A stretch of 64,000 bases of DNA from an uncultured Candidatus Peribacteria bacterium (GTDB taxonomy: Bacteria; Patescibacteriota; Gracilibacteria; UBA1369), in the NCBI GenBank assembly GCA_964528305.1, contig CAZGSD010000001.1:133749-197748 (forward strand). Reading direction: 5' to 3'. The translations under genes and the position numbers were made by a program. Shown here one piece after another: positions 1 to 64,000 of the stretch. The notes under the pieces are model-generated. The model saw nothing but the letters and a program-made list of their open reading frames with translations. It was not told the origin of the DNA and did no database searches. The stretch's first letter is position 1. Every line of letters starts with the position of its first letter.

Positions 1-1445
1 TGGGATAGATATACGTGGCCATCGGCGACGTTTTCCACTGTGGTTTCATGTTCGGTGACAGAGCCCAATTCCTCTTCAGAAACATTTTCACGTGGAACTT
101 GATAATGTAGCACTGTGCCGGGTTTGAGAGCTTCCGGTGGCAGGCCCAAGGATTTTTCCAATGCCGCTGTATCAGTGAATTTTTCTGACAAATTATTATT
201 GAGTGCCCATTTTTTGAATGCTGCTGGAGATAATTTCAAGGTTTCGCTTTCTCCGGCGCTATTAGTGATAGTGAATTCTATCATTGGGTCAAAACTGGGC
301 GTGACCAACTGTTCCTCTGGCGCTCGATCCGGATCCTGCCCGGCTTCACCAAAAGTGATATTTTGTATATTCACCCGGGTAGTCAGGTCGGCTGTCTCTT
401 TGCTGCCGGGCTGACCGCTAATCCATAAAGTCTGCCCGGGGCACAGGGTAGACAAACCGGTCTCACGGCTTAATTGACGCAGCTGAGCTGCTCTGATATG
501 GGCGATTTCGGCTTTGCTGGTTAGTTCGCGCATTTGTTTGATCAGACCACCAACCAGGGTGTTGTAAGTTTCAACGTATTCATCCAATTCAGCCACCAGC
601 TCCTCTTCCTGACGTTTAAGAGCTTTCAGAGTTTGATGGTAGGAAGTGCTTTTGGCTATGTCATGCTTCACTATTTGGGCGCCCATTGCGTCTTGAGCTC
701 TCTGTAATTCAATGTCCGATGGCGGAGCCAGTGAATTTAAACGCTGCACCTCGGTTTCATTTAACTTTCCGGCATTTACCAGATTATCCAACCTTCTGCG
801 AAACCCTTCATGATTCTGGCTGTCTCTTGTTAAATCAGCCAAATCTTCGCTGGAGAGAGGTGGGCGGGGTGGCTTGGGCGGTTCGCCATCGGCAGTCGCT
901 TCCTGAGTTGGTCTGTTTTGTAATTCTTTGAGATAGGCTTGCAGTGGAGCTGGGGAAGTGATGCCTAGATAGGTATTCATTTCCTCGGGGGTCAGATAGC
1001 CATTTTGAACCAATTCTTTATGAATATTCTCGCGCTGGCTGGATATTTTGGCTAATTTGGTATAAGTACCTTCCAGCTCCCTGCCCATTTTGAGTAAATT
1101 TTGAAGAGCCGCCTGGTTGTTTTCATAAAAATTAGCGTAATCCGGGTTCTCATCACGTTTGGCCATAAATTCATGCACGCCCTGAATTCCTCTAAATAGT
1201 CCCTGGACTCGCTTATTGATGGTCTCAGATAGGCCAGCAATTTGCTGAAACTCGCGGGGAGGGGCGGCTTGTCGCTCTGCAGCGAGGCGCTGACGTTCAG
1301 CCTGTTGCTGCCTCAGATATTGCTGGGACATGACGGCATCGGACATATCAAAATCCTCGCCTTCATCATCCTCATTATAATTCTTAGGAAGTCTGGTGCC
1401 TGTGGGGCGGTGCCGGCCTGGTTTTGAGTTGCGTGGCTTAGCCAT
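1..1445 (-). CDS. Hypothetical coiled-coil protein; start in window, 3' end cut by the left window edge (at least 481 codons). Absent from the supplied ORF track because no stop lies in the window.
   Basis: Manual reverse-strand translation from ATG at 1445-1443 (MAKPRNSKPGRHRPTGTRLPKNY...) stays open to position 1. Charged and Gln-rich, with no obvious TM segment. Same strand as the four genes upstream of it. Confidence 0.6.
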   Translation of the reverse strand, partial: MAKPRNSKPGRHRPTGTRLPKNYNEDDEGEDFDMSDAVMSQQYLRQQQAERQRLAAERQAAPPREFQQIAGLSETINKRVQGLFRGIQGVHEFMAKRDENPDYANFYENNQAALQNLLKMGRELEGTYTKLAKISSQRENIHKELVQNGYLTPEEMNTYLGITSPAPLQAYLKELQNRPTQEATADGEPPKPPRPPLSSEDLADLTRDSQNHEGFRRRLDNLVNAGKLNETEVQRLNSLAPPSDIELQRAQDAMGAQIVKHDIAKSTSYHQTLKALKRQEEELVAELDEYVETYNTLVGGLIKQMRELTSKAEIAHIRAAQLRQLSRETGLSTLCPGQTLWISGQPGSKETADLTTRVNIQNITFGEAGQDPDRAPEEQLVTPSFDPMIEFTITNSAGESETLKLSPAAFKKWALNNNLSEKFTDTAALEKSLGLPPEALKPGTVLHYQVPRENVSEEELGSVTEHETTVENVADGHVYLS

Positions 1446-1497
1446 TAATGAGGAAAGAAATCAATTATAATTATACGGGCTTGTAGGATTTGTCAAG

Positions 1498-3735
1498 TTA
1501 GGGTGAGGTGGTTGGAGATGCTGGGGTGGGAGTGAGGCCGGTGGCGGAAGAGCCATCCTTCAGAATATTGTCAACCAACGCCTCTGCATCATTCGCCTTT
1601 TTAAGGTTTTTTTTGAATTCCTGAATCAAATGCTCTCGTACTGGTTTTTTGTCGGCGTCTGTGGGTAGAGCGTCATAGGACTGTTTTAACTTTCCAGCCT
1701 TAATGCTGTCATTAATCTTGCCGTCTGGTTTAACAATATCAGCTACTTTCAAATCGCCTAAAACCGCAGTGATTTTTTCCACTTTGGTGGTGGCCTCTTT
1801 CACATCCTTGATGGCGGTGGTTGTGGCACTATTATCGCCAGAATCTTTAGCTTTTTCCAAAGCCTGGATCTTGGCTCCCAGATCTTTTGTAGCATCTCTC
1901 AAAATCGTATTGCTGGCGTTTGGTGATGTACTAGCCTTGTGTGCGACATCTTGAGCTTCTTTCAAAGCCTCAGTAGCACCGGCCGGACTGATTTTCATTT
2001 GATTATCAGCCACAAATTTCTCCAGTACCTCTTTTGCTACATTCCCGGCCTTGAGATCATCAGTGAATTTTTTTAAATCATTATTGTACTTGCTTGGTAT
2101 ATTCCTGACATCTGATTTGAATCTATTCAAAGTATCGGCTATAGCTGACTGCACTTCTTTGTTAGTAGCATGGCTGCCGCTGGAGGCTTCGGCTATGGCT
2201 TCTTGCGCCGCTTTCAAATCATTGCCACTGGCGGCTTTTTGTAGTTTATTGACTATTTCTTTTTTGGGATCCAGGCGATCCTTCTCCTGCCACTCCGCAA
2301 TCTTTTGAGCCGGCAAATTCAAACTGCTGGCCAGAGAGGCCAGGCCTTTTTTGCCACCACCATCCACGGGTAGTATTGGCGCATAGAGAGGCATTTTGGC
2401 CAGACTGGTGCCGAAGCCGCCCACTGCTCCTTTGATGGCATCGACTGCGCCCTGGGCCTTGGTGCCTTTCATGGCTTCGAAGACAGCCATCCAGATAAAG
2501 GCGGCGGTGGCCAGGCCAGCCATCAAATCTTGAATAGTACTCATGCCAGAGGTGATGGCGCCCAAATCCGCCGGATTGGTGGATAATTGCACGCCGGGAG
2601 AGATTTGTTTGAGCTGGGCTATCATAATCATGCCTATGGTGAGCACGATGGAGACTTTGACAGGCACCAGGGCATGGCTCATAAATAAGCCGAAAAATGG
2701 ATCATTGTCACTTAAAGTATCTTTTACTTTTTTGAAAGCTATGCCTAAGAAAGACAGTGGTGAAATAGCTATGGAAATCCAAAGCACTACCACGCGGGCC
2801 AGTAGTACGACGAATAGTGCTATGAAAGAAGTGCTGTAAATGGTCAGGAAAATTACGGAAAAAATAGTATTGATGGCGAGACTATCTAGACCTGTGACAT
2901 GAGTCGGATTAAGAGTGTCAATTTTACCTATATCCATCAGCTCCAGGGCCAGTACCAGGGCGACATTGCGGGAGTTGAAGGTGCTGAAAAAACTCTGGGC
3001 GCCGTTTTTTAAGGCGACGGTGGGAGATTTGGATTGGTCTGCTTGGCCTGATTGACCAGCACCTGCGGCTGGAGCCCCACTTGATTTGGTGTCAGTTTTG
3101 GCCGGGTCGCTGGCTTTGCTACAAAATGGATTCTCATGACTCTGATTTTTGACGAGAATTTTTTTACAAAGGGTGTCATCTAGTTTTTTGGCACCCTCCG
3201 GGGTAGCGTATTTTTTGAGTGAATCAGAAGCCATTGGCACGGCGAAAATGGCAGTGGTGGTGATATTGACAGTATCCAGCACCACTTTACAAAGCATGAA
3301 GGAAAAATTAACGGCAATCAGACCTATGGCGACTTTTGGTAAAACCGCTTTGATGCTGAAATCGTCACTACCGCCCACACCAACAATATTGTAAATAGCC
3401 ACAGCCAGCAGCCCCAAGACAAACATAATATTCACAAAATCCCGAACGGCGCTCCAGATATTGAGCAGGACGGTTTGCATACCACCGCTAAAGAGCAGAT
3501 CGTTGTTGAGCAGCCCTCCAATCATCAGCAGCACCGGCCAGAGAAAGACCTGCATGGCCTGGAGAATGATATCGAAAAATTTAAATGCCTCGGTGCCCCC
3601 ACTCTTTAGAGCTTGGCTAAGAGCGTCAAATCCCTCAGCGTGTGCCAGCAGAGGCATAGCCAGCATTAAAGTTGTAGCCAAGATATAAGCCAGGCGGCGG
3701 TAGCGATACTTATTGTAGAGGTTTTTAAAATTCAT
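1498..3735 (-). CDS. Polytopic membrane protein: signal peptide, about 10 hydrophobic segments over about 430 aa, then a long Lys/Ala/Asp-rich helical tail ending in a Pro/Thr/Ser stretch. Function unknown.
   Basis: 745-aa ORF. The N-terminus ...LAMPLLAHAEG looks like a signal peptide. It is followed by many hydrophobic runs, a KAxxE-rich C-terminal half and a TPTPASPTTSP end. The layout loosely recalls VirB6/TrbL-like proteins, but I cannot confirm that. Confidence 0.7.
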   Translation of the reverse strand: MNFKNLYNKYRYRRLAYILATTLMLAMPLLAHAEGFDALSQALKSGGTEAFKFFDIILQAMQVFLWPVLLMIGGLLNNDLLFSGGMQTVLLNIWSAVRDFVNIMFVLGLLAVAIYNIVGVGGSDDFSIKAVLPKVAIGLIAVNFSFMLCKVVLDTVNITTTAIFAVPMASDSLKKYATPEGAKKLDDTLCKKILVKNQSHENPFCSKASDPAKTDTKSSGAPAAGAGQSGQADQSKSPTVALKNGAQSFFSTFNSRNVALVLALELMDIGKIDTLNPTHVTGLDSLAINTIFSVIFLTIYSTSFIALFVVLLARVVVLWISIAISPLSFLGIAFKKVKDTLSDNDPFFGLFMSHALVPVKVSIVLTIGMIMIAQLKQISPGVQLSTNPADLGAITSGMSTIQDLMAGLATAAFIWMAVFEAMKGTKAQGAVDAIKGAVGGFGTSLAKMPLYAPILPVDGGGKKGLASLASSLNLPAQKIAEWQEKDRLDPKKEIVNKLQKAASGNDLKAAQEAIAEASSGSHATNKEVQSAIADTLNRFKSDVRNIPSKYNNDLKKFTDDLKAGNVAKEVLEKFVADNQMKISPAGATEALKEAQDVAHKASTSPNASNTILRDATKDLGAKIQALEKAKDSGDNSATTTAIKDVKEATTKVEKITAVLGDLKVADIVKPDGKINDSIKAGKLKQSYDALPTDADKKPVREHLIQEFKKNLKKANDAEALVDNILKDGSSATGLTPTPASPTTSP

Positions 3736-3739
3736 ATTT

Positions 3740-5446
3740 TTATGTGAGGCTATTGATAGCGGCTGCGCTGAAAGTGGCTAATAATGGTAGGCCAGTGGCG
3801 ACGGCAACGATGGCAGCGCGATAGTTTTTTGGCTGAGGTTGTTGAGTGGCAGCCACAGAAATTCCTGGGACTGGAGCTCTACCGGAGGCCTGGGTAGCAG
3901 CCATGGCCGGCTGCTGAGACATAGCAGAGGCAGATGCGCTTAACTGAGCTGGTTGGCTGGCGCTGATTTTCGGCATGATACGGCGGGGGGTGACACTGGA
4001 GAGTAGAGGCGCCGCCACGGTGCGGGGCGTGGGGATGAGGGGGAGATTTACTGAATCGCCGGGAGATTTGGTAAAAGGAATGGCGTAAGTGGCGGCGCCG
4101 GCAGGGTTTTTGGCAGTATTATGGCTGCTGGAACTATCGCTAGTAGGAAAACTGAGTGGACGATTAGGGCCAGCTGGTGGGTGCTGCGGCAAACGCTGAT
4201 CACTGCTGACTTGATACTCCTGGGCTTCCTGAAGTTTTTTATAAAGAGCCAAGAGAGGTGTGCGCAGCTGAGCTATGTCTGTCGGCGCCAATTTGAGCTG
4301 GGGATTGGCTGGAGAGTCCTGGTCTGGCTTTGGATAGATAGAAAAATGCATGGTGGGATGATCGTTGAGCCTGTCTTTGACACTGTCTATCACAACTCGG
4401 GCAGCTACTCCCTGCCCGTCCTGGACAAAAAAGACGGCATTACTGCCCTGGCCGGATTTGTCCAAATGCACTCCCGTGCCTGACAAAATGGCACTAAAAC
4501 CATCTCCAGCCACTTGAAATGGCCCAGCTGGTATAGATAAAGCATAGTCGGAAGCAGATAGGGCTGTGTATTGTAATTGCCGGGCCTGACGCTGATTGAG
4601 AATTTGTAATAATTGACTGAAAGTTCTATGAGTTGATGCAGATGTGGATTTAGTTGTAGCTATATCCGCATGTACAGCACGGCGATCCAAAGCCTTTGGT
4701 GAGATCAAAGTTTCTACCCGGCCAGTAGCTGATAAAGCCACTGCTAACCCAGGAAAACGCCGACTCACATATTCACGCAGCATAGCAGCCAACTGCTCCC
4801 CTTTTAGTCCCTGCTGGCGCAACTCGGCTTTTTGCCCGGCCAATTCCGCTAACTCGGCATGGGATAGGACAGTATCAAATTCCCCGCTGCTGCCACGCAC
4901 CAAAATCTGCTCGCCCAACCCCTGATAGGGATTGACCGGCTCGGTGCTGGTGGGCCCAGTTTTTTTGCGCCCTGCTTCCAATAGAGCTATCTCACGCTGC
5001 TCCACACTGTGCAAGAGCGGCTTGACTAAACCGTTTAATAATAATTCTTTTTGAAAAACATCAAATACTGGTTGCCCCTGATCTTTTTCGCCTCCAGCAA
5101 AGCCTGGACGCAATCTATCCAGGCGCTGAAAATTATAAGTGCAGAAGCGTAACTGTTGATGCAGTTGATCAAAGAAAAAGGCCTGATCTGTGGGAGAATT
5201 GCTGAAAGGACGGAGAGGACGGGGGGTGTTGATATTGCCGTCCAGATAAAAATACTTGCGGAAAAATAACTGTTTTTCCGGCTTGAGATTGATAAAAGGT
5301 GTCTGTTGATTAGCTGAAAAAATCACTTCATGTAGCGGAGCCAAAGTCTGGTCTTTTTTCTCGATAAATTTAGCTTCATCGATCAAAATTTCCTGTACCA
5401 GGATTTCCAGATTGCGGGTGAATTGTGCGTCTATTTTGACATTCAT
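3740..5446 (-). CDS. Hypothetical protein: soluble N-terminal region, Pro/Ser/Ala-rich linker and a single C-terminal TM (tail-anchored).
   Basis: 568-aa ORF. Its start overlaps the upstream gene's stop as ATGA (5446-5443), and it lies 4 nt from the downstream gene. The C-terminus is YRAAIVAVATGLPLLATFSAAAINSLT. Confidence 0.65.
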   Translation of the reverse strand: MNVKIDAQFTRNLEILVQEILIDEAKFIEKKDQTLAPLHEVIFSANQQTPFINLKPEKQLFFRKYFYLDGNINTPRPLRPFSNSPTDQAFFFDQLHQQLRFCTYNFQRLDRLRPGFAGGEKDQGQPVFDVFQKELLLNGLVKPLLHSVEQREIALLEAGRKKTGPTSTEPVNPYQGLGEQILVRGSSGEFDTVLSHAELAELAGQKAELRQQGLKGEQLAAMLREYVSRRFPGLAVALSATGRVETLISPKALDRRAVHADIATTKSTSASTHRTFSQLLQILNQRQARQLQYTALSASDYALSIPAGPFQVAGDGFSAILSGTGVHLDKSGQGSNAVFFVQDGQGVAARVVIDSVKDRLNDHPTMHFSIYPKPDQDSPANPQLKLAPTDIAQLRTPLLALYKKLQEAQEYQVSSDQRLPQHPPAGPNRPLSFPTSDSSSSHNTAKNPAGAATYAIPFTKSPGDSVNLPLIPTPRTVAAPLLSSVTPRRIMPKISASQPAQLSASASAMSQQPAMAATQASGRAPVPGISVAATQQPQPKNYRAAIVAVATGLPLLATFSAAAINSLT

Positions 5447-7029
5447 GCTTTTGCTGATGTTAAGCCCTGCTCTTGATGGAATTTGTCGGAATAAGCTTGT
5501 AATTTAGGCGCTTCGTCAATTTTTAATTCGGTTAAAACAATCATCACTCCCTGCAGAGACTGCTTGAAATTAATATCTTTACTACCGCCGGAAGCGTAAG
5601 CTTTCTGCAATAACTCCAATTGATGGGGACCGGCTTTGGCAACCAGTAAATTGTAATCCATTGCCACGTCTTTTCCCTGGCTTTTTTGTTCGTAGGCCAG
5701 GCTCTGTACCAGGTCCAGACCTGTTTTTTTCACGCCTCCTGGGAATTCATCTGGCGTAAGTAGAAAATCCAATAAAAAAGGATTGCGACCAATTTCATTT
5801 TTTAGAGTGGTCTCCAGCTCATTTTGGGCAATAGTCTGTTTTTCGGCTTTTTGTTTGGGGCCGTCGAAAGCTGAAACAGCAGTGGTTTTTATGTCATTGT
5901 AGGTATCAGGCGAAACTACTTTCACCACGCCCAAGGTGCCGGCGGTGGCGGCGGCTGTACCCATCCAGAAATAGGGGCCGAAACTGCCAGCTTTGGCGTT
6001 AACCAGGGCTGTAGCCAAGCCCCAAAGCGCTGTCAGCATCATCAATCCGGGCGTGCCGGCTATTTTAAGCACAGGGTTTTCGGCGGTGCGGCCCTGCTGC
6101 GTCTGAACGACGGCAGCTAGTTGTTTCTGATAATCCTCCTGTTTTTTGGCTAGATCACCATTGGTCAGCTGGGCTTGTAACAGGGCCGCGGCCTCGGCCG
6201 GCAGTTTGCCGCTACCAATCAAGGCCTGCAACTGTAAATTGTTGATTTGCCCGGACTCCAGTAAACTATTTAAAATTTCTACAGATTGATTAACCGGCTT
6301 GCTCTGCAGACAAGTTTCCATAAATTCCATTTTTTGGGCTGGTGACAAAAGGCCAATCACAACACCAACCTGGCTGGATTCAAAAATATGCCCCAAATTC
6401 TTTTGATCGACGCTACCAGACAAGCTGAGTGGCTGGGCCTGATCGACCAGAAGCTGCATTTCTTTTTTGTCCAATTGTTCATGGCGCAGGACTTTGAGAC
6501 ATAATTTTTCCAGCTCGGGATTGGCGCGTAATTTGGTCATGGCTTCCATCATGGCTTCCAGTTTGACTAAATCGGCGTCATTCAACTGCCCCAAACCACG
6601 CACATGAGCGATGATCTGCTCATAGGGCACATAGATGTTTTCCAACTGTTTATCAGTCTCCGCTAGAACCTGTTTGGCCAGCTCAGCTCGAGCTGCTGGC
6701 GCTGAATCCATCAATTCCGCAATTTGCTGGGCATATCGATTTTTTGCGTCTTGAGCGGCCTCGCGCAGACGATTGATCTGTTTGGCAGTTAATTGCTCAG
6801 CGCCGGCCTCCCCCACTGAACCGCTACTGCGAAAACGATTCTGCAAAGCTTCGATTTTCTGTTCATAGGCGGCAGCTTTCTTGTCGACCGTTTCATTGAA
6901 AGTTTGCACATCATGGCCTTCCGCTCCCGCTGCTGGAGTTGGGGCTTTGGTTTGATCCACGGCTACCGCCGCCCGCTCTACTGGCCGGCTGGGATTTTGC
7001 TCCGGAGATGTTTGGGTTTCACCTGCCAT
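5443..7029 (-). CDS. Hypothetical membrane-associated protein: disordered N-terminus, coiled-coil region, and a central pair of Gly/Ala-rich TM segments.
   Basis: 528-aa ORF, 5 nt downstream of the 190-aa gene. The hydrophobic region is GTPGLMMLTALWGLATALVNAKAGSFGPYFWMGTAAATAGTLGVVKVV. Confidence 0.65.
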   Translation of the reverse strand: MAGETQTSPEQNPSRPVERAAVAVDQTKAPTPAAGAEGHDVQTFNETVDKKAAAYEQKIEALQNRFRSSGSVGEAGAEQLTAKQINRLREAAQDAKNRYAQQIAELMDSAPAARAELAKQVLAETDKQLENIYVPYEQIIAHVRGLGQLNDADLVKLEAMMEAMTKLRANPELEKLCLKVLRHEQLDKKEMQLLVDQAQPLSLSGSVDQKNLGHIFESSQVGVVIGLLSPAQKMEFMETCLQSKPVNQSVEILNSLLESGQINNLQLQALIGSGKLPAEAAALLQAQLTNGDLAKKQEDYQKQLAAVVQTQQGRTAENPVLKIAGTPGLMMLTALWGLATALVNAKAGSFGPYFWMGTAAATAGTLGVVKVVSPDTYNDIKTTAVSAFDGPKQKAEKQTIAQNELETTLKNEIGRNPFLLDFLLTPDEFPGGVKKTGLDLVQSLAYEQKSQGKDVAMDYNLLVAKAGPHQLELLQKAYASGGSKDINFKQSLQGVMIVLTELKIDEAPKLQAYSDKFHQEQGLTSAKA

Positions 7030-7034
7030 GGATT

Positions 7035-7607
7035 TTATAATTTAAATAAACGCAAAAGATGCTCGGTCCAATGCTCTTGAACACCGGTCATTTCACTTAA
7101 GTATTGCTCCAAAAAAGCCCGCACGGCCTGGGGATTCTGATTTTCCAGCTCGATGATGAGATCAGGTAATAGGCCTTCTTTCAGACGCAATCCTAATTTC
7201 CTGACAGTAGGTGGCTGATAGAGAATCCAAAAACAGGAAATATCGGCATAGGGAATTTGACGATGGCCTATTTTCACTCCCAATTCGGATAAATTCACTT
7301 TGGTGTGACGTGGCGGATGATATTCGTGAGTGAAATAATAAACCGCTGCGAAAACCACAGTGGCCACCAGCATGGTCCAATTGCCGCTGAATGCCTCCAA
7401 AATGATAACCGCCAGCAGTATCAATGCGGCCGCCCCCCACCAGCGTAGAGACTTGGGATGCTGCAAATATTCCGGAGCTATCCAGGAAAAAACTGCTTTG
7501 TTGAAATCCGGCACAGCATGGCTTTCATCCAGATTTTCTTCGAAAACTGAAGGATGATAGAGGGGGTCTCTCTGGCCTGATTGGCGAAGGGGCCGTAAAA
7601 ATGCCAT
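7035..7607 (-). CDS. Small membrane protein with two TM segments and a C-terminal globular domain, possibly bacterial PH-like. First gene of the five-gene operon.
   Basis: 190-aa ORF with the hydrophobic pair WWGAAALILLAVIILEAF and WTMLVATVVFAAVYYF. The PH-like idea rests on architecture only. Confidence 0.6.
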   Translation of the reverse strand: MAFLRPLRQSGQRDPLYHPSVFEENLDESHAVPDFNKAVFSWIAPEYLQHPKSLRWWGAAALILLAVIILEAFSGNWTMLVATVVFAAVYYFTHEYHPPRHTKVNLSELGVKIGHRQIPYADISCFWILYQPPTVRKLGLRLKEGLLPDLIIELENQNPQAVRAFLEQYLSEMTGVQEHWTEHLLRLFKL

Positions 7608-7864
7608 AAATTGATTCTACTAAAATCCTTTAATTATAGCATAAAAACGCCCTTTTCTGAAGTCTGCCACCCCTGGACCACTACAGTTTGTATTGCCTTT
7701 TAAGCGTATTGTGGTGTCGGTATTTTTCAATTTCCTTGCCTTTACCAGATTGATTTGCTAGATTTGCTGCGCTTCTTTGTGCTTTTTGGTCAGTACCCGA
7801 GGGATTTTATCCTTGGGGAAGCTACCGGAAGGCTAAGCAAAATTATTTATTAACCAAACAAAGA

Positions 7865-31814: not shown

Positions 31815-34100
31815 TCACCTCGCCACCACCGCGCGCAGTTGATAGATGTCGTGCAGATTGACCACTTCTTCGCTGCGCGCGGTGGTGGCTTCGTCCTGGC
31901 GGCTGGTGGCGAGCAGCGTGAGTGCCGGCGACAGTTGGAGAGTTTTTTTGAGTTGCGTGGGGACCAGGGTTAGCTGATTTTGTGCGGTGAAGCGATATAG
32001 TGTCGCCGGCGATAGGTCGAGACGGAAAGGCAGGCGATAGCGCAAAGTGATTTGATTTTCCGTGCCGGCCGCTACCGTCATGGGGAATAGCAAAGTGGTT
32101 TTTTTAAGTTCGCTATCATGCCGCACGAGGATATCCTGGCGGGCTACGCCTTGGCTGGTTTCCAGCTCGGCTCCCAGGGGCAGGTAGACTTTTAGATAAA
32201 CTTTATTGTCCCCTCGTCCCAAAATTTGCTGCCAGCCCTCTGCCATTTCGCCAAAACCAAAACGTTTCAAAACCGAATTATACCGATGTAATTCATTTTC
32301 CGTCCAATTGTGACGCCGCTCGATAGTGAGCTCGTCATAGACTGTCCCGTCCGGCTCGATAAAGGTGTTATGGGTCAGATTTTGAGTGATATACAAATCA
32401 CTTTTATTACCTCCGATAGATGTAGCCACCACCTGCAAAAAATCCTCCTGCGGCTCCAGCGCCGATTGATGGGGCGTCAGATGATAGCGTTCAAAAAAGG
32501 CCTGAACCACTTCATCACGGGAATAAAAAATAATTTTTTGCTTACGAATAAGCCCAATGGCTGTCTGCAAAATAGCGGCCGGATTGTTGCTCTGCAGAAT
32601 TTTATCTCGGAAAGCCTCAATAGTTTTGCCCAGGATAACTTTCGGATGATCCTCACCAAAATATTTAGATTCAATCAAATACCCCAAAATCATTTGGAAG
32701 TTATTGCTGTCCAGATCGGCATGCAGCGGTGGCACGCGCAGTGGCCCCAGATCAGCTAGTATCTCCCCAATGGCGCTTTGATTAATGGCTATGACAGTAT
32801 CGACTGATGGCCCTTTGGACTTTTGCAGAAACCAGGCCGCTTTTTCAGCAGAAATGGCGAAGTCGGGAGAATAATTACTATCGCGCAACCGCCAATTATC
32901 CGTGATACGGGCTATTTCTTCGGGGGCGGCGATGTCTTCATTCAACTGACCATCGTATTGATAAACATCATGAAAATCGGCGCGGCTGACCAGCCCGTCA
33001 TTGATATCTACTATGAGCAGGGACCCGATAAAACCGCCGGTGGGACGGGCTTCCGTGTCATTTTGCAGCAGTAGCAGGTAGCGATGTGGATAGCGGTCGC
33101 CCAAAAGTTCTAGAATAGCGGGGAAATGTTCAGAAAGATCACTTAAGAAGTTGTCGATTTTATCGAGACGCTCTTTCAGTCCACCCAGCCCTTCACGATA
33201 CTGTTCCGGAAGCATGGTGATATTGACATCGGCCAATAAATTTTTGGCGGCAGCGATTTTGCCTGAAGCCTGACTGATATTGGCTAAATCCTGGCGTAGC
33301 TGATCGGTGAGCGAGGGGGTACGATTGGCTGGATCGACTTCGGGAGCCTCAGGCTGTTGTGAAACGCCCGCTGGTGGTGGATTATTGCCTATATGTACAG
33401 CTTGATTGGCCTGTAAAAATAGTGTTGGCCATTCCTGTAGACGTCCGGCTGAGGCAGTAAAAAGTTGACCGGCTTCAGCTATGTATTGACCGGCAGACAG
33501 CATGTTTTCGAGAGAACGCACATCCGCCTGTTGACTAAAAATATTGGAAGTGCGCAGAAAGGAGATTTTTTCCAGAGCCTGATTGAAATTATTTTCGGCT
33601 TCACCAAAAGCTGTCTGGGCTTGGTTGGGACTTTGCTGCGTGACCTGCTGAACACCGGCCAAAATACCATCCACCCCGCTGGAAGCACTGGAAATCAGTG
33701 TGGACTGTACTCGCAGTGAGCTGCTGAAAATCTGGCCTAGATTAATCACAAATACTACCAGCAAGCCGGCCGCTACCAATTGGGATAAATGCCAGACGTG
33801 GGAGAGGCGCGGCCTCGCGGCGCCACTGGGGGTGGGCAGTTCCGGTCGATTGATCAGATGAAAGGCTGGGGCTGGTTGGGACGCTGCGATGCTGTCCAGG
33901 CGCCGCGTGGCCGCGCGAGCCCGATGCTGCCGAGGCCCTTCAGCCTGGCCGACCTGAAAAGCCTTCAAATCCAAGATGTGATTAGATGTATTGGGAGTAT
34001 CAGCGCGCGCGGCAGCGGCACCAGTAGATGGAGTGTTTTTGAGATCAAGTTGCTCTATTTGTTTTACTTTGCTCAAGTCATTGAGCTTGTAAAGCGCCAT
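31815..34100 (-). CDS. Large membrane-anchored extracytoplasmic protein, possibly DUF4012 family
   Basis: 761 aa with an Arg/Ala-rich N-terminus and one TM (LVAAGLLVVFVINL). The internal motif ...NDTEARPTGGFIGSLLIV... is one I associate with DUF4012, from memory only. Confidence 0.5.
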   Translation of the reverse strand: MALYKLNDLSKVKQIEQLDLKNTPSTGAAAARADTPNTSNHILDLKAFQVGQAEGPRQHRARAATRRLDSIAASQPAPAFHLINRPELPTPSGAARPRLSHVWHLSQLVAAGLLVVFVINLGQIFSSSLRVQSTLISSASSGVDGILAGVQQVTQQSPNQAQTAFGEAENNFNQALEKISFLRTSNIFSQQADVRSLENMLSAGQYIAEAGQLFTASAGRLQEWPTLFLQANQAVHIGNNPPPAGVSQQPEAPEVDPANRTPSLTDQLRQDLANISQASGKIAAAKNLLADVNITMLPEQYREGLGGLKERLDKIDNFLSDLSEHFPAILELLGDRYPHRYLLLLQNDTEARPTGGFIGSLLIVDINDGLVSRADFHDVYQYDGQLNEDIAAPEEIARITDNWRLRDSNYSPDFAISAEKAAWFLQKSKGPSVDTVIAINQSAIGEILADLGPLRVPPLHADLDSNNFQMILGYLIESKYFGEDHPKVILGKTIEAFRDKILQSNNPAAILQTAIGLIRKQKIIFYSRDEVVQAFFERYHLTPHQSALEPQEDFLQVVATSIGGNKSDLYITQNLTHNTFIEPDGTVYDELTIERRHNWTENELHRYNSVLKRFGFGEMAEGWQQILGRGDNKVYLKVYLPLGAELETSQGVARQDILVRHDSELKKTTLLFPMTVAAGTENQITLRYRLPFRLDLSPATLYRFTAQNQLTLVPTQLKKTLQLSPALTLLATSRQDEATTARSEEVVNLHDIYQLRAVVAR

Positions 34101-34120
34101 AGGATGATTTTTGGTGTTTT

Positions 34121-35785
34121 TTAAAATTTAAGCTGATAAACGCCGAGCACGCCAATTTCAGTAAATTTTTTGGCCATGGAAACGGACTTTAGTGGATGCA
34201 GATCAGAGTTGAGAGGTGATAAATCGCTGATATTCATCTGATAGACTTCCAGCGGTTTATCCAAACCATAGTTAGAGACAGATTTGCTACTGGGTTTAAG
34301 GGAAATCATATCTTCTAAAAGCGGACTGGAGGTTGTGATAAGCAGATAATGCTCAGCGCTATTTACCAGCGCATAGATATTGAAGCTTGGAGAAATATTT
34401 AATTGTTCAACAGGATGGCCAGCGATATTGATAGTACTGAAGGTTGCGGCTGTTAATTCAGGAGAAAGTTCCTCTCCCACGGTGCCATCTGGCAAAGTAA
34501 AAGATCGTGCCTGGCCATACAGTATACCAGCTAATTGTGAGCCGATGGCGCGAAGGAAAGGCTGTAAAGTCAGTAAATTGTCAGCTGGACTATCACTCTG
34601 GATAATCATTCCAAACTCAAATTCATTATCCACTGCCCGCCCAAAGATTAAAACCTCTTGGCTCAATATGGAAAAGAACTTATCTAAATCCACCGGTTCT
34701 CCACCTGGAATGGTTAAAAAATCCTGTAAAGCCTGTCGAACCCCTGCTCGCATAACCTTATCCAAAGCCGATTGTCCGCTCATGGCTGCCTGCAGTTTAT
34801 TAGTCTGATCTGGTATATTAACTCCTCCCCAATAAAATCCCGTACCGGCCGGCAACAGGGATTCCAAGTATCCATGATAAAAATAATCCACGTTGAATAG
34901 ATTGGGTGGCGATAATTTATCTCGATTAAATAAAGCTAAATGCTTAAACTCCAACTGCTTTGCTCCTCCAACAGTATCCGTCAACTGAATAGAAACTGCT
35001 TCAGAATTGAATAGTCGAAGCATTGGCAAGAGGAGCTGAAAAAACGCTTTATCGCCGGTTGCCAAAGCGCTACTGCGGCTGAGCATATTGATGATCTGAC
35101 TGCGATTCAGATAGAGCCAGCCGATATTTTGATCGGGCAAAGCGGAGGCCAGCTTCAGATAATTTGGCGATTTGCGCAATGATTGATGCTGACCAGAGAG
35201 TGTGCCAGCAATTAATTTTAAATTGTCGCGATTTTCAGTCAGAATTAACCAGTCACCGCTGAGCATGAGATGATAGACTAGCCCGCTGCGAAAAGACAGC
35301 AATTTCTGGCCCTGATAAGTTTCTTCCAGCAAACTATCATTGCCTGGATCCAGCACCAGCTCATTGATCCAGTCTAAAACTTTTCCATGATCTTTCTGTT
35401 GCAAGAAAATAAGCAATTCAGGCCGTTGCCCATAACTGTCGGACAGTACAGCCAATCCCCCACGCCCGCTCCACCATTGATGAAAAAGATCGCTATGCGG
35501 TATATATTGCTGCAGCTGCTGAAAATGATTATTCAGTGTTTGATTCTGCCCAAGCCACTCGGATAATTGTGCCGTTTCGCGATGGGATGGATCCAGGTTA
35601 AACTCAACAAATCCCAGCGTACGCTGCTCTGGAAGAAAACTAGCCAAGCGACCACTGTTGGTGATTTTTTGCCAATAGAGCAGTGTAAAAATAGCGCTCA
35701 CCCCCAGTACAGCCAGCAAAATCAATACCCCGTAAAAGCGCTTAGTGATGAGATTTTTTAGATTAATTAAAGTTTTTTTCGACAT
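34121..35785 (-). CDS. Hypothetical membrane-anchored protein
   Basis: 554 aa with the N-terminal TM YGVLILLAVLGVSAIFTLLYW. It lies 20 nt downstream of the previous gene on the same strand. Confidence 0.6.
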   Translation of the reverse strand: MSKKTLINLKNLITKRFYGVLILLAVLGVSAIFTLLYWQKITNSGRLASFLPEQRTLGFVEFNLDPSHRETAQLSEWLGQNQTLNNHFQQLQQYIPHSDLFHQWWSGRGGLAVLSDSYGQRPELLIFLQQKDHGKVLDWINELVLDPGNDSLLEETYQGQKLLSFRSGLVYHLMLSGDWLILTENRDNLKLIAGTLSGQHQSLRKSPNYLKLASALPDQNIGWLYLNRSQIINMLSRSSALATGDKAFFQLLLPMLRLFNSEAVSIQLTDTVGGAKQLEFKHLALFNRDKLSPPNLFNVDYFYHGYLESLLPAGTGFYWGGVNIPDQTNKLQAAMSGQSALDKVMRAGVRQALQDFLTIPGGEPVDLDKFFSILSQEVLIFGRAVDNEFEFGMIIQSDSPADNLLTLQPFLRAIGSQLAGILYGQARSFTLPDGTVGEELSPELTAATFSTINIAGHPVEQLNISPSFNIYALVNSAEHYLLITTSSPLLEDMISLKPSSKSVSNYGLDKPLEVYQMNISDLSPLNSDLHPLKSVSMAKKFTEIGVLGVYQLKF

Positions 35786-43024: not shown

Positions 43025-46000
43025 ATGTTTAAAAGAAATCAAAAAATCAGGGATTTGGAAAAGGCTCTACAGGATGGCATAAAAAATCCCGCCATGGCTG
43101 AGCTTTTGGAGGCTATAAATAAAAATGCTCCTAAGCAGGCTAGAGCAGAATTTCGTGATAATTTGAAAGCTAAATTATTAAATAGTTTTAACATGCGCAA
43201 AGCTGAAAAACATGACCGAGAGGCTGGGCTGGGATTTCAGTTGTGGCGAGATTTGCGATTCCGTGGTTGGGCGGTAGCGTTGGCTGGACTGATATTGGTA
43301 GTACTTGGAGCGGTGATTTCTTATCCATTGATACCAGCGCCAACGGTTCAAGGTTATTTATTAAAAGGTGCTACTAGAGAAATGTCTGCCAATGCGCCTT
43401 TTCAAATTACTTTTAGTCAATTGATGGATCATGGGTCAGTGGAGAAAAATTTCCAGATCGAGCCGATTATCCCAGGTAAATTCCGCTGGAAAGGCAATAC
43501 CATGATTTATGAAACAGGGCAGACTTTGAAAGATGGCGATGTTTACAAAATCACCATTGGAGAAGGGGCGCTGAGCTTGCTGCGTAAACCACTAGCCAGT
43601 GAATACAGTGAGTTTTATAAAATAGTGAAAAGCCCACAGGTGGCCTTGATTACTCCCAATGATGGTTCTGTGGCTGTGCCAGTGGACAGTAAAATCAATA
43701 TTATGTTTGATCGGCCAATGACTGGCCTGACTACTTTGGGGGCCGGTCGGCAGAATTTCCCGGCAGTAAAGCTGGAACCAGCAGTGCGGGGACGCTGGAA
43801 ATGGCTGGGGACCAGTACCATGCAATTCATACCGGAAAGTCTGCAGGAAGCGACCAGCTATCGCGTGGTGGTGCCGGCCGGCACCGAGGTGCTAGATGGA
43901 GGCCGCACGGAAAACGAAGTGGTGGCTAGTTTTGAAACGGCGCGTCCTGAACTGATACAAATGTGGGCGACTGATTCGCAAACTCCTACTGAATTTTCAC
44001 CACGCAGCAAAATTAAACTTACTTTCAATCAAAAAGTTGATCTAGCTAGCGCTACTTCCCTAATCAAATTGAAACGTTTGGAAAAAGGACAGGAAGTGGA
44101 AGAAGTATTGCGAGTAAGGTATTTCACTGAACAAGATTATCGGGATGAGCAGAATCAGAGCATGGATCTGCAGGCTATGAATCAGATGGAAGAAATAAAA
44201 GAAGAAAGCGGAGTTAATACAGCAGTGCTGCCACCAAGTAAACCGACACAGGCTGAACTTTCCAAAAGTTTAATTGTGGAAAGCCAGTCAAATTTACAAG
44301 TCGGCCTCCCCTATCGTTTGACTGTAATGGCTGGCATACGTGGAGCGGCCGGCCCATTGACTACCCTGGCTGATCAGAATTTCGAAATCCCGGCTATGAT
44401 GGATTTGCAGATGACTGGGGCTGGAAATGTTGAGATTGCTCCGGACTCTGATGTTACTTTGGCTAGAGTGACTTTGCCATATAACGCCCGCATGGATTTG
44501 CGCAGCTTCCGGGACAAAATAACTGTTAATCCACCAGTAAAAGATGAAAAAGGATTGCTGGTGAAGGCTAATGTAACTACGGCTGACTCCCCCAATAATA
44601 TACGAATTGATTATGATTATCAGCCAGCTACTGATTACACCATCACGGTGGCGGCCGGAGTGAAGGATATATTTGGACGCAGCTGGAATCAGCCCGCTGA
44701 GATTAAATTCCGTACGCCTAACTTCCGTCCAGCTCTGCTGCTGGAGACTGGTACTGATATAAGCGTAGTGGACGGTTCCAAACCTAGTCATTTTTATCTA
44801 AAATCCACCAATATTGATTATGCCGACGTGAAATTAAAAAATCTCAGCCGTGATGAGTTTGTGAGTTTTTATGGTAGTGGCTGGCTGGACTATGCTGCCA
44901 TCAATATATCAGGTGAGGGAAATCTCTGGACTGGCCGTTTACCTATTAAACTGGCCACCAATCAGCGTGGGCATACTTTGCTGGATTTGGATAAATTGAC
45001 TGGAGCCAAACTTTCACCCGGTTTTTATCAAATGGAAATTTCCAATCCGGCAGTGCTAAAGAATCAGTGTGATTATCAAGGAGTTTGTCAGAAAAAAATG
45101 AAAGTGGAAAAAACTTTGTTTGTGGTATCGAAATCGGCTTTAGCTGTGAAATTTAACACTAAAGAAATGCTGGTCTGGTCTACCAATTTAAGTAAAGGTG
45201 AACCGGTAAAAGATATGAAAATATCAGTATTAGGCATTGGAGGAAATGCCACCAGTGACGCCAGTGGATTGGCCCGCATAACTCTAGCAGATACTGATGC
45301 GGATGGTGGATATAGAGATTATTTGATTTTTGGTGAGACGGCTGATGGTGATATTAGTTTTGCCCACTCGACCTGGAGTGAAGGTATTGCTCCTTGGAAT
45401 TTTGGAATTAATAGCGAAAGTATTGCTCCTGAATATTATGGCTATGTTTATACTGATAGGCCGATTTATCGCCCTGATCAGGAAGTGTTTTTCAAAGGTA
45501 TAGTGAGACAGGAAAAACAGGATAAATTCCGCTTGCCTACAGCCAAAACTGTGCAGGTAACAATAGACGATCCATTGGGTAATCGCGTGCTGACCAAAGA
45601 TTTGCCGCTGAGCTCCAATGGGACTTTCAGTGGCAGCCTGAAACTGGGTAAAAACATTAATAGTGGAGATTATTATATGAGGGCCATGCTAACCGATGTG
45701 ACCGGCCCGGAATGGCTCCGGCAATTTACTAGCAGCTTCCGGGTTTATGAATATCGCAAACCGGAATATAAATTGGATTTGATTACGGACCGGCCGGAAT
45801 ACGTCAATGGTGAACAGGCTAAAGTTACTGTTAATGCTGGTTATTTCTTTGGGGCGCCTTTGCCGAAAGCCAAAGTTTCCTGGAATCTACAGGCCAAGGA
45901 CTATTATTTTATCTTGCCGGAAGAATTGGCGGGTAAACTGGCGGGCAGCTGGTTTAGTTTCGCTAGTGAAGGACTTTTTTGCTACTGGGGTTGCCAGTCT

Positions 46001-49000
46001 GATAGCCGCGTGGTGAGCCAGGGAGAGGTGCAGACGGACGAAAAAGGAAATGCTCAAATTGTTTTGCCGCTGAATTTGAATGATCAGAAAATTAGCCAGA
46101 TTTATACATTGGAGGTGAGAGTGCAGGATGCTAATAATCAGGGAGTGAGCAGTCGTATCAGCATACCGGTACATAAAGGTGAAATTTATGTGGGTGTGCG
46201 CAGCCGAGATTATGTGGTGAATGCGGGGCAGCCGGCAGCAGTGGAGGTGCTCGCGGTCAGCCGTGAGGGCCGGCTGCAGGGTGGGCAGGCGGTGGAACTC
46301 TCTCTGTTTGAACGCAATTGGAATACGGTGAAGCGTAAAAATGTGGATGGAGATTTCTATTTTGAAAATAGTTATGAAGATAAGTTGGTGGAGAAAAAAC
46401 AAGTGACTACTAGTAGCGAGGGATTAGCGGTGGCTGAATTTAATTTGAAGAAAGGTGGGAATTATTTAGTTGAAGCCGTGGGCCGCGATAGCCGTGGCAA
46501 TGTGGTGAGCAGCTCGACTAGTATTTATGCCAGTACGGGAGAATTTGTGAATTGGGGTAATGCCAATAATGATAAAATTGAATTGATAGCTGACAAGATG
46601 GAATATCAGGTGGGTGAGACGGCCCGTGTTTTGATCAAATCTCCTTATCGTGGCGTGTATGCGTTGGTGACTTATGAAAAAGACCGCGTGCTCGATCAGA
46701 AAGTGATTAAACTCAATTCCAACACGCAAACAATAGAAATACCCGTGACGGAAAAGTTTTTGCCCAATGTTTTTGTATCAGTAGTGCTAGCCAAAGGGAA
46801 TAGTTATGATGCTGGATTAATGGCTCCGCCCAATGGTGAAGTTGATGATAGAAAAGTGGCTGGCTTCAAGGTTGGTTACACAACTTTGCAAGTGAACACT
46901 GCCAGTAAACGTTTGAATGTGAATATAAAGAGTGATAAAGAGCGCTACGCTCCCGGAGAAAAAGTGCGGTTACAACTGAATAGTACTGATTTAAATGGTA
47001 AACCAGTGCCAGCCGAACTGTCCGTGGCAGTGGTGGATGAAAGCGTTTTATCTCTGACAGAAAGCGTCACTGCTGACTTGCTGAATGTGTTTTACCGCCG
47101 CCGGTTGCTGGCGGTAAATATTGCTCATACTTTGACCAAGGCTATTTCGCGCGTCAATGTGCAGGTGGAAGCGGGACTCAAAGGCGGCGGTGGTGGGTCT
47201 GCGGCTAAACGAGGTACTTTTAAGGATACTGCTTATTTCCAAGCTAATTTACAGACTGACGCTAATGGGCAAGGTGCTTTGGAATTTACTTTGCCGGATA
47301 ATTTAACAACCTGGAAGGTGGCGGCTATCGGCATCAGTAATGATAGCGGTCGAGAGGCTCGCAGCCTGGTTGGTAGTGGACAGCATTCTTTCCTTGCTAA
47401 TAAAGATATTTTACTGCGCCCAGTTTTGCCACGCTTTGCTACCAGTGGAGATGAGATGGAAGTGGCGGCTATAGTGCATAATTATACAAGTAGTGAGCAA
47501 CGAGTACGGGTCGGACTGGATGCTCAGGGAATGAAATTACGTGAAAGTCGAGAAAAAATAGTAAATATTAAATCTGGGCAATCAAGCAAAGTGACTTGGA
47601 AAGTTTTAGTAGAATCAGCTCCTCTGGCTAGTGTGAATTATCAAGTACTAGATGACAAAGGTGGTGTGGCTGATAGTGTGGCCCAGGCTTTACCACTAAA
47701 AGCCGGCAGCCTGCCAGAGGAAGTGGCTATGAATACTGTGGTCAGTGGTGAAAATAAGGAAATAGAAAAAGTTTGGCTGCCAGCCGGCCTGGATTTGTCT
47801 CAAGGTCAGCTGCGCATAGAAATTGCTGCCACATTGAGTGGGGCTTTGCAGCGTATGATAGATGAATTGCGCGCCATGCCCTATGGTCATACTGAAGCGT
47901 TGAGTAGTTCATTACTGGCGAATTCTGCCCTGAAGAAATTAACTACCACCAGCAAATGGGCTGCTGATAAATGGCCGGCCAAAGATTTGGATGCCCGCAT
48001 ACAATCTGATTTGCAGCAACTGTATAAACTGCAGCATCCGGATGGTAGTTTTGGCATGTGGATGAATTCTATGTCTTCCCCCTACTTAACGGCACAAGTG
48101 CTTAATGCTATGCAGGAAGCACGCGCGGCTGGAATGGCAATTGATGAGAATATTTGGAAAAACACCTTGGCTTATCTGAATAAGCAAGCTGATAGACCAT
48201 TGAATCAAGAAGGTCTGACTCCCGATGAAAAAGCTTTTATTTTGTATGCTTTGAGTGAAGCTGGACAAAATGTCACGGCTTTCAACAATAATTTATATGC
48301 ACAGCTAGCTGCTCTGGATGTGACTGGGCGGGCCTATCTGGCTATGGCTTATCAACTGTCCGGGCAAGGTGACGCTGCGGCAGCGGAAAAAGTTAATGCT
48401 CTCAAAAAAGCTCTAGAAAATGCCGCTCAACAAACTCCACGTGGCGTGAGTTTTAGAATGGAAAAATTCCAATATTCTTATTTTGATACGCAGGTGAAAA
48501 CTGATGCTATCGCTCTCAAAACTCTGCAAAGACTGGATAGCAATAATCCGCTAATACCGAAAATAATATCTTCGCTGTTTACCGAAAGAAAGGGCGGCCG
48601 CTTTGCTACCAGCCAAGAAAATGCGCTGGCCTTGGAGGCTTTGCTGGAATATCTGGGAAGCTCAGGCGAACTAGCGGCCGCCTATCAGGCACAGGTCATG
48701 TTGAATGGCCGGGAGGTGTTGAAGGAAAAGTTCACCAGTGAAAATTTGACCGCCGGAAAAACTGTGGACATTGCCCTGCGTGATCTCTTGGCTGATAATC
48801 TGGATAATGAAATTGCCCTGCAGAAAACAGGCCTGGGCAAAATGTATACAGATATTACCTTGAAATACTTCTTGCCACTATTGGAGCAGGTTGCTGCCAA
48901 TGAAGGCCTGGAAGTGGAGCAGGAATATTTCACATTGGAAGACTTGAAAATGGAAAAGCCGTTGGATAAGGGACCGGCCGGCGCTACGCTGCGGGCCAAG

Positions 49001-63064: not shown

Positions 63065-64000
63065 ATGAAAAATAAAAAGCAGCTGTCATTAAAGGAGGCT
63101 ATTGAGAAATTCTTGGAATATTCAGAAATTACCAAGAATCAATCCGCCAAAACACTGGAGAATTATCGGCATTATTTGGCTAGACTGATGGGTTTTGCTG
63201 GGAAGGATTTGTTGATTGAGAAAATCGATTTAGAGCTGGTGCATAAATATCGGCTTTATCTAAATAGACTGGTGGATGAAAACAAAGCCCCGCTACTAAC
63301 TGTCAAAACGCAATTTTATCATTTGATTGCCCTGAGGGCTTTTTTGAAATTTTTGATACGGCAGGACTACTCCACCTTGGCGCCGGAAAAGATTGAACTC
63401 GGTAAAATGCCCGATCGTACGGTGGATTTTTTGGAAAGGGATGAGTTGGCCGCTCTGTTTGCCGCTGTGGATCGGAATGCGGTTACCGGGCTGCGGGATT
63501 ATGCGATATTGCGGATGCTGTATTCTACAGGATTGCGCATTAGTGAATTGGTTGGCTTAAATAAAGATCAAATCAATTTGGATACGCGGGAATTTCGGGT
63601 GATGGGTAAAGGCGGGAAATACCGCATAGTTTTTTTGTCGCCGGAGGCCGCCGGGGCTATAGATCAATATTGGCGGGCCAGGCGGGATGAATTTGCGCCG
63701 GCTTTTATCAATCATGGGCGAGGGGGAAAGGTGGCCAGCCGGTTGGAGCCAGGTGCTAAGGTTAATGAAAATGAAAGAAAGAGACTATCCCCCACCATGG
63801 TGCAATATTTGATCAGAAATTATGCCAAAAGAGCTGGACTGGTCAAAAAAGTGACGCCGCATAAATTGCGACACAGTTTTGCCACGGAATTGTTGAAAAA
63901 TGGGGCTGACATACGTTCCGTGCAGGAAATGCTGGGCCACAGCTCCATCACCACTACGCAAATTTATACACATCTGACCAATAAACGGCTGCGTGAGACG
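63065..64000 (+). CDS. Tyrosine recombinase (XerC/XerD-like), 3' end cut by the window edge. Absent from the ORF track because no stop lies in the window.
   Basis: Manual translation from ATG 63065 stays open for 312 codons. The N-terminal SAM-like domain (LENYRHYLARL) is followed by the catalytic motifs ...GLRISEL..., ...LRHSFATELLKNGADIRSVQEMLGHSSITTTQIYTH. Confidence 0.85.
   Translation, partial: MKNKKQLSLKEAIEKFLEYSEITKNQSAKTLENYRHYLARLMGFAGKDLLIEKIDLELVHKYRLYLNRLVDENKAPLLTVKTQFYHLIALRAFLKFLIRQDYSTLAPEKIELGKMPDRTVDFLERDELAALFAAVDRNAVTGLRDYAILRMLYSTGLRISELVGLNKDQINLDTREFRVMGKGGKYRIVFLSPEAAGAIDQYWRARRDEFAPAFINHGRGGKVASRLEPGAKVNENERKRLSPTMVQYLIRNYAKRAGLVKKVTPHKLRHSFATELLKNGADIRSVQEMLGHSSITTTQIYTHLTNKRLRET

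Follow-up and report, generated by a model that had tools for sequence, protein, structure and literature searches.

The question raised by this locus is what is encoded by five closely spaced genes at the left-hand end of a stretch of 64,000 nucleotides (nt), here called the window, from an uncultured Candidatus Peribacteria bacterium of the patescibacterial class Gracilibacteria. The window occupies positions 133749-197748 of the first contig (G000:C1:133749-197748) of a 960 kb assembly that is 96% complete. An initial annotation described the genes as a tightly coupled operon of 'orphan' membrane and coiled-coil proteins and a candidate envelope complex. The analysis reported here indicates that the block is probably the VirB6 operon of a dispersed, chromosomal type IV secretion system (T4SS) of the Patescibacteria type, that is, a monoderm system related to MPF-FATA. 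This kind of T4SS is already known; what is new is the arrangement of the genes and the presence of a component reported missing in the class, VirB6 having been described as 'absent' in Gracilibacteria, 'suggesting extreme sequence divergence', in the excerpted text of the one phylum-wide survey, that of Quinonero-Coronel et al. 2025 (PMC12102498). The five genes, g1 to g5 in order of transcription, are as follows (aa, amino acids; TM, transmembrane).

g1, 7035..7607, minus strand: 190 aa; first gene of the operon; two TM segments at about residues 52-98 and a conserved C-terminal domain.
g2, 5443..7029, minus strand: 528 aa; helical N-terminal part, Gly/Ala-rich hydrophobic hairpin at about residues 322-375, and a C-terminal domain.
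g3, 3740..5446, minus strand: 568 aa; Pro/Ser/Ala-rich linker followed by one C-terminal TM segment at residues 544-564.
g4, 1498..3735, minus strand: 745 aa; polytopic membrane protein of 'extended' VirB6/TrbL type.
g5, 1..1445 (open reading frame 3-1445, open at the edge), minus strand: the N-terminal 481 aa of a protein of 1278 aa.

The coordinates and spacings of these five co-directional minus-strand open reading frames (ORFs), which lie within window positions 1-7607, are in the ORF list exactly as the initial annotation gave them: g1 and g2 are separated by 5 nt, g2 and g3 overlap by 4 nt at 5443-5446, 4 nt lie between g3 and g4, and 52 nt between g4 and g5. TM segments were taken from a Kyte-Doolittle scan with a threshold of 1.6, and hydropathy agrees with the earlier description of g1 as a two-TM protein, of g3 as tail-anchored and of g4 as polytopic with a signal-like start. 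None of the five proteins passes a Pfam or NCBIfam cut-off.

In a T4SS the translocation channel has its base in the cytoplasmic membrane, where it is formed by a polytopic subunit, VirB6/TrbL. The g4 protein consists of a region of TM segments and a loop with a Cys pair, from residue 1 to about 460, followed by a Lys/Ala-rich helical tail of about 290 aa; hydropathy places a signal-like segment and approximately seven TM segments within residues 15-422, and the inserted loop, of about 130 aa, carries two invariant Cys. It is near-universal and single-copy in the class: each of the 41 genomes of the same order, which represent 17 families, has a single-copy match, and the TM domain was found in 142 of 151 genomes of the class (128 of the 132 of good quality), lineages with recoded TGA included. 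The homologues that carry names come from Candidatus Peregrinibacteria and Gracilibacteria. An alignment of the g4 family (A2, 65 sequences) was compared with an alignment (A4) of 12 Patescibacteria proteins of other classes that pass the Pfam TrbL profile PF04610 with 27.7-44.3 bits (cut-off 25.9), these being chosen from the 20 best loci after seven cut by locus ends and one from a genome flagged as unpublished had been dropped. The two were matched by hhalign with a probability of 99.8% and an E of 1.8e-27 over 201 columns, covering residues 85-379 of g4, and the motifs that they have in common are visible in both consensus lines. When a hidden Markov model (HMM) of the g4 family was run against 16 loci of other classes, it matched 19 VirB6-like ORFs of 7-9 TM segments (E 8e-21 to 2.5e-7); 12 of these loci have a VirB4 gene 2-5 kb away.

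The structural evidence points in the same direction. The AlphaFold2 model of g4 residues 1-480 (pLDDT 77, pTM 0.72) is made up of long helices, and its exhaustive alignment to 48,161 solved chains yielded Z scores of 8 or more solely with DotA (Z 9.3, 262 residues aligned) and TrwI/VirB6 (Z 9.1, 255 of 261), although according to the tool's own note values near 9 are reachable by chance for helical models. A second structural look returned three TrwI entries at Z 9.4-9.8, with the next chain at 5.7; across the comparisons the g4-TrwI alignments cover 243-256 residues and the next unrelated chain lies at Z 5.7-7.9, and for comparison the model of g5, which is equally helical, tops out at Z 7.0 over 59 residues. 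Judged from profiles and models, g4 is homologous to VirB6/TrbL, although strongly diverged and bearing a C-terminal extension, and the loose resemblance noticed in the initial annotation turns out, by hhalign, HMM and structure, to be true homology.

It had been suggested that a VirB4- or VirD4-like ATPase might lie to the left of the window. None was found among the ORFs to the left of g5 at the locus, and the earlier observation that the block holds no ATPase, pilin or coupling protein extends beyond the left edge as well, no search aimed at VirB2-like pilins having been made. A VirB4 gene and two VirD4-like genes are present on other contigs. The VirB4-like gene (G000:C10; L043:9356-11893, plus strand) encodes 845 aa, is situated between gyrA and an S41 peptidase gene, and exceeds the cut-offs of P-loop_TraG (4.6e-25, 88.5 bits), AAA_10 (35.5) and DUF87 (31.5); its product is 50-60% identical to those of 11 VirB6-adjacent VirB4 genes of other classes and 38% identical to that of a twelfth. 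The two VirD4-like ORFs, on contig C2, pass PF02534 with 46.7 and 33.3 bits (cut-off 20.1) and one of them also passes PF10412. At 845 aa the VirB4 is long in comparison with the approximately 600-680 aa of other classes, the extra 240 or so N-terminal residues being of low complexity. Its TTG start may have been called too early, and the idea that the N-terminal 240 aa represent a fused TrsD was discarded when no TrsD profile matched them.

Across the 151 genomes of the class VirB4 was found in 146, at 43-74% identity, whilst a TrsD-like gene and g4 were each found in 142; nine genomes lack g4 alone, five lack VirB4 alone and none lacks both. Within the order the TrsD-like gene occurs in 13 of 15 genomes, and on these TrsD-like counts, for class and order, the proposal that g2, g3 and g5 are replacements for TrsD and PrgI was rejected. 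In seven genomes belonging to three families of the class (f36, f38 and f45) the matches to g4 and VirB4 are only 4-5 kb apart. One such locus (L096) has, in order, a g4-family protein of 1644 aa (E 3.9e-36), a PrgI-like protein (6.5e-24), a TrsD-like protein (4.4e-74) and a VirB4 that is 62% identical to the VirB4 of the present genome. In the family to which it belongs (f36; L096 and genomes G058, G084, G095 and G125) the VirB6 homologue, of about 1650 aa, is twice the size of g4 and lies in a canonical cluster; no match to g1 was found in L096, the one locus of that family that was read. The class thus includes lineages with the canonical cluster as well as others in which, as here, the genes are dispersed. 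The excerpted text of PMC12102498 likewise records that TrsD and VirB3 of Gracilibacteria are not near virB4. That the block might prove to belong to an already described T4SS had been named at the outset as an outcome that would refute the initial reading, and this is so in part: it probably belongs to the Patescibacteria T4SS of PMC12102498, as excerpted, and the arrangement is the part that is new. A literature search combining VirB6 with the names of this class returned that paper alone, and the Vampirococcus paper contains no T4SS terms.

The conservation of gene order, which the initial annotation had put forward as a check, was followed in 20 loci around g4 taken from 20 genomes of the same order, 14 from the same family and six from other families. 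By tblastn g1 was recovered in 19 of these loci, g5 (after g4) in 16, g2 in 11 and g3 in eight. By position g1, two ORFs and g4 are found on one strand in 19 of the 20, giving g2 and g3 positional equivalents in that same number. The full five-gene order, co-directional and with genes of similar sizes, is intact in 17 loci, the last gene encoding 1056-1452 aa; of the three exceptions one is in pieces (L022), one is without the large last gene (L026) and one is a variant (L032). The five-gene arrangement is more than chance, because the same order recurs in 17 of the 20 loci. The flanks vary among the relatives, the upstream neighbour of g1 being a gene of about 790 aa, identified as purL, in several loci and mutS in one; this gene had been considered as a VirB4 adjoining the block in relatives and was rejected on that identification. 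Because the order is kept while the flanks differ, the block moves as one. Other orders of the class were represented by 20 loci (code 25 being used to read three of them): g1 is immediately upstream of g4 in 12 of these, and the middle genes g2 and g3 are unrecognisable.

The two hydrophobic segments of g1, at residues 52-98 in the Kyte-Doolittle scan, are adjacent, and its family, represented by an alignment of 19 sequences (A3), occurs as a single copy in 147 of 201 Patescibacteria genomes. The protein itself has no match to the Pfam model DUF5673 (PF18923) at an E of 1 or below. Its neighbours in a language-model atlas, at 0.97, are named DUF5673, and when the same Pfam model was compared with 20 g1 homologues of other classes, 11 matched at an E of 0.1 or below and two exceeded the cut-off; weak PH-domain matches were also seen among those homologues. 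By sequence g1 would thus belong to a phylum-wide DUF5673-like (PH-like) family. The notion that it is PrgI/VirB3 was rejected, since hhalign of A3 against PrgI-like two-TM proteins encoded beside VirB4 (A5) gave a probability of 3%. In other classes g1 adjoins a gene of 665-693 aa in 10 of 20 loci (L112-L131), and in the three that were scanned (L113, L118 and L128) this gene is RecG. Where g1 and a TrbL match lie on one contig, as they do in 18 genomes of other classes, they are within 27 kb of each other in 13, a count to be read in the light of kin genomes that are not independent, of the bias arising from the one-contig requirement and from contig size, and of the T4SS being said to lie near the origin.

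The g5 gene continues for 2392 nt to the left of the window (L003:3609-7445). Its product, 1278 aa in full, has no TM segment and no Walker A motif. A profile of its C-terminal part found 660 cluster representatives, nearly all of 1100-1550 aa, and none of the 17 representatives that were scanned has a Pfam match; an atlas search gave no usable match and a word-indexed homologue search with the C-terminus gave at least two. The AlphaFold2 model of residues 640-1278 is all-helical (pLDDT 82, pTM 0.75), and its best VIA match, at Z 7.0 over 59 residues, is to one helical hairpin; the 639-residue model was searched whole, and the null result does not show a new fold. Earlier labelled 'soluble coiled-coil', g5 is better put, on the evidence of the model, as a large soluble all-helical protein. 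In g2 the Gly/Ala-rich hairpin previously described is present, scoring below the 1.6 threshold, so that no TM segment is called at that level. On the sequences at hand g2 and g3 constitute lineage-specific, fast-evolving families. Sequence searches of the PDB returned compositional helical matches alone for g1, g3, g4 and g5; for g2 there was nothing below an E of 0.002, the matches being designed helical proteins only. With g4 in 142 of 151 genomes of the class, g1 in 147 of 201 of the phylum and g5 in 660 cluster representatives, the description of the proteins as orphans has to be given up.

Contigs of run X1 ('probably DNA') span the block and differ from it at strain level. Two stretches in the middle of g3 (window 4352-4685, approximately residues 254-365), of 198 nt and 87 nt, have been replaced or skipped in these contigs, with numerous single differences concentrated nearby. 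The middle of g3 is a strain-variable region, which is consistent with its low conservation among relatives.

The block is bordered on the right by rpsF and rpsR, and to the left of g5 are small ORFs followed by an opposite-strand ORF of 668 aa that is thrS-like (all read by eye). Two promoter-like sites were noted.

TTCAGA-17-TATAAT with TG, 7633..7661 (L003 13661-13633), minus strand: in the divergent gap between g1 and rpsF, 26 nt ahead of the start of g1.
TTGACA-18-AATTAT, 1467..1496 (L003 7496-7467), minus strand: within the 52-nt gap between g4 and g5.

Both sites are weak, because the promoter and terminator scan found a total of 20 sites against 15.1 +/- 3.6 in shuffled sequences, i.e. 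no excess.

An important consideration is what the proteins encoded with a VirB6 might do. In the proposed mechanism g1 to g5 would be co-transcribed from the promoter upstream of g1, and VirB6 would be surrounded at the membrane by g1 (with its two TM segments), g2 (whose TM hairpin would have helical arms in the cytoplasm), the tail-anchored g3 and the cytoplasmic g5. Most of the mass of g1, g2, g3 and g5 would face the cytoplasm, and because the predicted topologies place it there a platform at the cytoplasmic membrane is possible, onto which VirB4 and the coupling proteins may dock. Elsewhere platform-type roles are held by VirB3 and VirB8. It is put forward tentatively, as a possibility and not as the expected outcome, that g1, g2, g3 and g5 are unrecognised subunits of a monoderm T4SS, forming a lineage-specific VirB6 platform in place of missing components of the VirB8 and VirB3 type, with g5, whose helical fold has no solved counterpart, as a scaffold for VirB4 and coupling-protein docking or for substrate selection. 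The system may well serve a host-dependent lifestyle and not conjugation, as in Saccharimonadia, and a Patescibacteria T4SS has reportedly been described by Wang et al. 2023 in Southlakia epibionticum. In the excerpted text of PMC12857230 the T4SS is presented as the first secretion system reported essential for the growth of an epibiotic Patescibacterium.

Several observations weigh against the block being a VirB6 operon of such a system. No VirB4 is found within about 10 kb of g4 in the present genome or, by tblastn, in any of the 20 loci of the same order. Neither a TrsD-like nor a PrgI-like gene was found in this 96% complete genome with HMMs, Pfam PrgI and same-class queries, and in the case of TrsD this may reflect an assembly gap or a real loss. 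One genome of the same order that is 100% complete (G029) has the g4 block and a TrsD-like gene without a match to VirB4. Around VirB6 in the 16 loci of other classes hmmsearch detected no homologues of g1, g2, g3 or g5, and hhalign of these four against the positional neighbours of VirB6 in other classes gave less than 1% in every case, the neighbour sets having been grouped by position and possibly being mixed. In other classes g1 lies apart from VirB6, outside the order g5 follows g4 in just one of 20 loci, and the promoter-like site in the g4/g5 gap is, as sequence, a possible separate start for g5. As for g4 itself, in addition to the chance level of the Z scores, the Foldseek comparison that had been proposed gave a significant match for neither model: with g4 there was nothing at an E of 0.001 or below, TrwI/VirB6 appearing at rank 11 (E 1.9), and with the C-terminus of g5 the best E was 0.02, to alpha-solenoid proteins with TM scores of 0.08-0.18. 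Nor did hmmscan match Pfam TrbL (PF04610) or TrbL_3 (PF19590) to g4 and 36 members of its family at an E of 10 or below. This failure of Pfam is a matter of the detection criterion and not a property of the protein. PF19590 was found neither in the present genome nor in the 201 genomes of the phylum, and PF04610 in none of the 11 genomes of this class within the phylum sample. Faint PF19590 labels precomputed for some g4 homologues were not reproduced by hmmscan. The genome G029 would be the sole complete genome seen with VirB6 and without VirB4.

Some of these observations would be expected if a VirB6-like g4 had been exapted and, with g1, g2, g3 and g5, now formed an order-specific envelope complex independent of VirB4, such as a scaffold or attachment platform. 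The lack of linkage between g4 and VirB4, both here and in each of the 20 loci of the order, operon partners without T4SS homologues, the state of G029 and the want of TrsD-like and PrgI-like matches in the present genome all agree with such a change of role. However, out of one set of 151 genomes 142-146 have retained VirB4, the TrsD-like gene or g4, as counted for each gene, and the 43-74% identity of VirB4 throughout the class implies strong purifying selection on a protein that has no known partner besides a membrane core of VirB3, VirB6 and VirB8. In addition, a lineage of the same class keeps the canonical order of VirB6, PrgI, TrsD and VirB4, and the dispersal of T4SS genes in the class has already been reported (PMC12102498, in excerpt). 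An exapted g4 is therefore considered unlikely.

A further explanation is that the operon is one of convenience, in which g4 is VirB6, g1 and g5 are unrelated to it, and at most g2 and g3 work with VirB6. Here the wide occurrence of g1 in the phylum, and its occurrence on its own beside a RecG-type gene in other classes (10 of 20 loci, RecG in all three scanned), have to be set against its position upstream of g4 on the same strand, in 19 of 20 loci of the order and 12 of 20 from other orders, despite differing flanks, and against the proximity of g1 to TrbL in 13 of 18 genomes of other classes, biased though that count is. For g5 the single instance after g4 among 20 loci of other orders and the promoter-like site in the g4/g5 gap would suit an unrelated gene, but tblastn places it after g4 in 16 of 20 loci within the order. 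Such an operon appears decidedly improbable. The block might also belong to a conjugative mobile element with a T4SS (a remnant of an integrative and conjugative element or a plasmid), for which one could cite the homology to VirB6 in itself and the descent from MPF-FATA that has been proposed for the T4SS of Patescibacteria (PMC12102498, in excerpt). This is very hard to credit, given the single copy of g4 in every one of the 41 genomes of the order and of each of the five genes in this genome, the housekeeping flanks (rpsF, rpsR and thrS-like by eye; purL and mutS in relatives), a GC content of 0.47-0.485 that lies inside the window range of 0.386-0.502, and a block without VirB4 or type IV coupling protein, no search aimed at relaxases having been made.

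If the block is indeed a VirB6 operon, the missing VirB6 subunit would be supplied for the whole class (142 of 151 genomes), in a conserved operon of its own far from virB4. The four proteins predicted to be co-transcribed with it would become candidates for the rest of the machine, amongst them g5, which represents a large family and whose confidently modelled fold has no structural match, and the architecture of a monoderm non-conjugative T4SS would become directly testable. Should the platform also prove real, the DUF5673 family represented by g1 would be an overlooked general T4SS-associated membrane protein of Patescibacteria.

Other features of the window and genome were recorded in passing. 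At window 43025-49354 on the plus strand there is a gene for an alpha-2-macroglobulin-like protein of 2109 aa with Big_5, MG2, A2M, TED and bMG10 domains, which is very large for a genome of about 1 Mb. Two large proteins, DUF4012 (761 aa) and DUF3352 (554 aa), are encoded by adjoining genes at 31815-35785 on the minus strand. A tyrosine recombinase (Phage_integrase and SAM-like N-terminal domains) at 63065-64000 on the plus strand runs off the right edge and may be a housekeeping enzyme of the XerC/D type or the edge of a mobile element. Elsewhere in the genome gyrB (G000:C10; L043:15293-17295, plus strand) consists of two overlapping ORFs, of 424 aa (HATPase_c, DNA_gyraseB) and 289 aa (Toprim, GyrB_C), which means either that the gene is split or that there is a frameshift or an error of assembly.

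Amongst systems of known structure a close comparison is with TrwI/VirB6 of plasmid R388 (PDB 7o3v, 8rt9 and 8rtd). Both proteins are polytopic and all-helical, and the alignment with g4 covers nearly the whole TrwI chain (residues 2-267), although identity in the structural alignment is 9-12% and homology is reached through TrbL-positive intermediates and not by a direct match to Pfam TrbL. Unlike TrwI, g4 has 745 aa, with the two-Cys loop of about 130 aa and the Lys/Ala-rich tail of about 290 aa. No VirB5 partner is known in monoderm systems. DotA (PDB 9ngy), from the Dot/Icm system of Legionella, is the top structural match (Z 9.3 over 262 aligned residues, root-mean-square deviation 6.6) and is likewise a polytopic channel-forming subunit. 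Its system, however, is of type IVB and comes from a diderm; the chain has 857 residues, identity is 10%, and the likeness is structural alone. An 'extended VirB6', with at least five hydrophobic helices and large central or C-proximal hydrophilic domains, is described in the excerpted text of PMC12857230 for Gram-negative systems; g4, with its central loop and C-terminal tail, is likened to it by description alone. The components of the Rickettsia T4SS are similarly scattered over the chromosome according to the excerpts of PMC12102498, but that system is a diderm one of MPF-T type in which the VirB6-like genes are duplicated, whereas the monoderm system considered here has only one VirB6. 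Another of the closest systems is the Patescibacteria T4SS, which the same excerpts describe as chromosomal, relaxase-poor and monoderm, with VirB4, TrsD, PrgI/VirB3, VirB6 and a distant coupling protein, and to which the present genome is tied by a VirB4 that is 50-60% identical to 11 of the cluster VirB4 genes and by the match of g4 to the cluster VirB6. The genes of those clusters run pilins, VirB6, soluble proteins, PrgI, TrsD and VirB4, with a distance of 2-5 kb between VirB6 and virB4, whereas at the locus described here the VirB6 homologue has an operon apart, whose other four genes encode g1, g2, g3 and g5.

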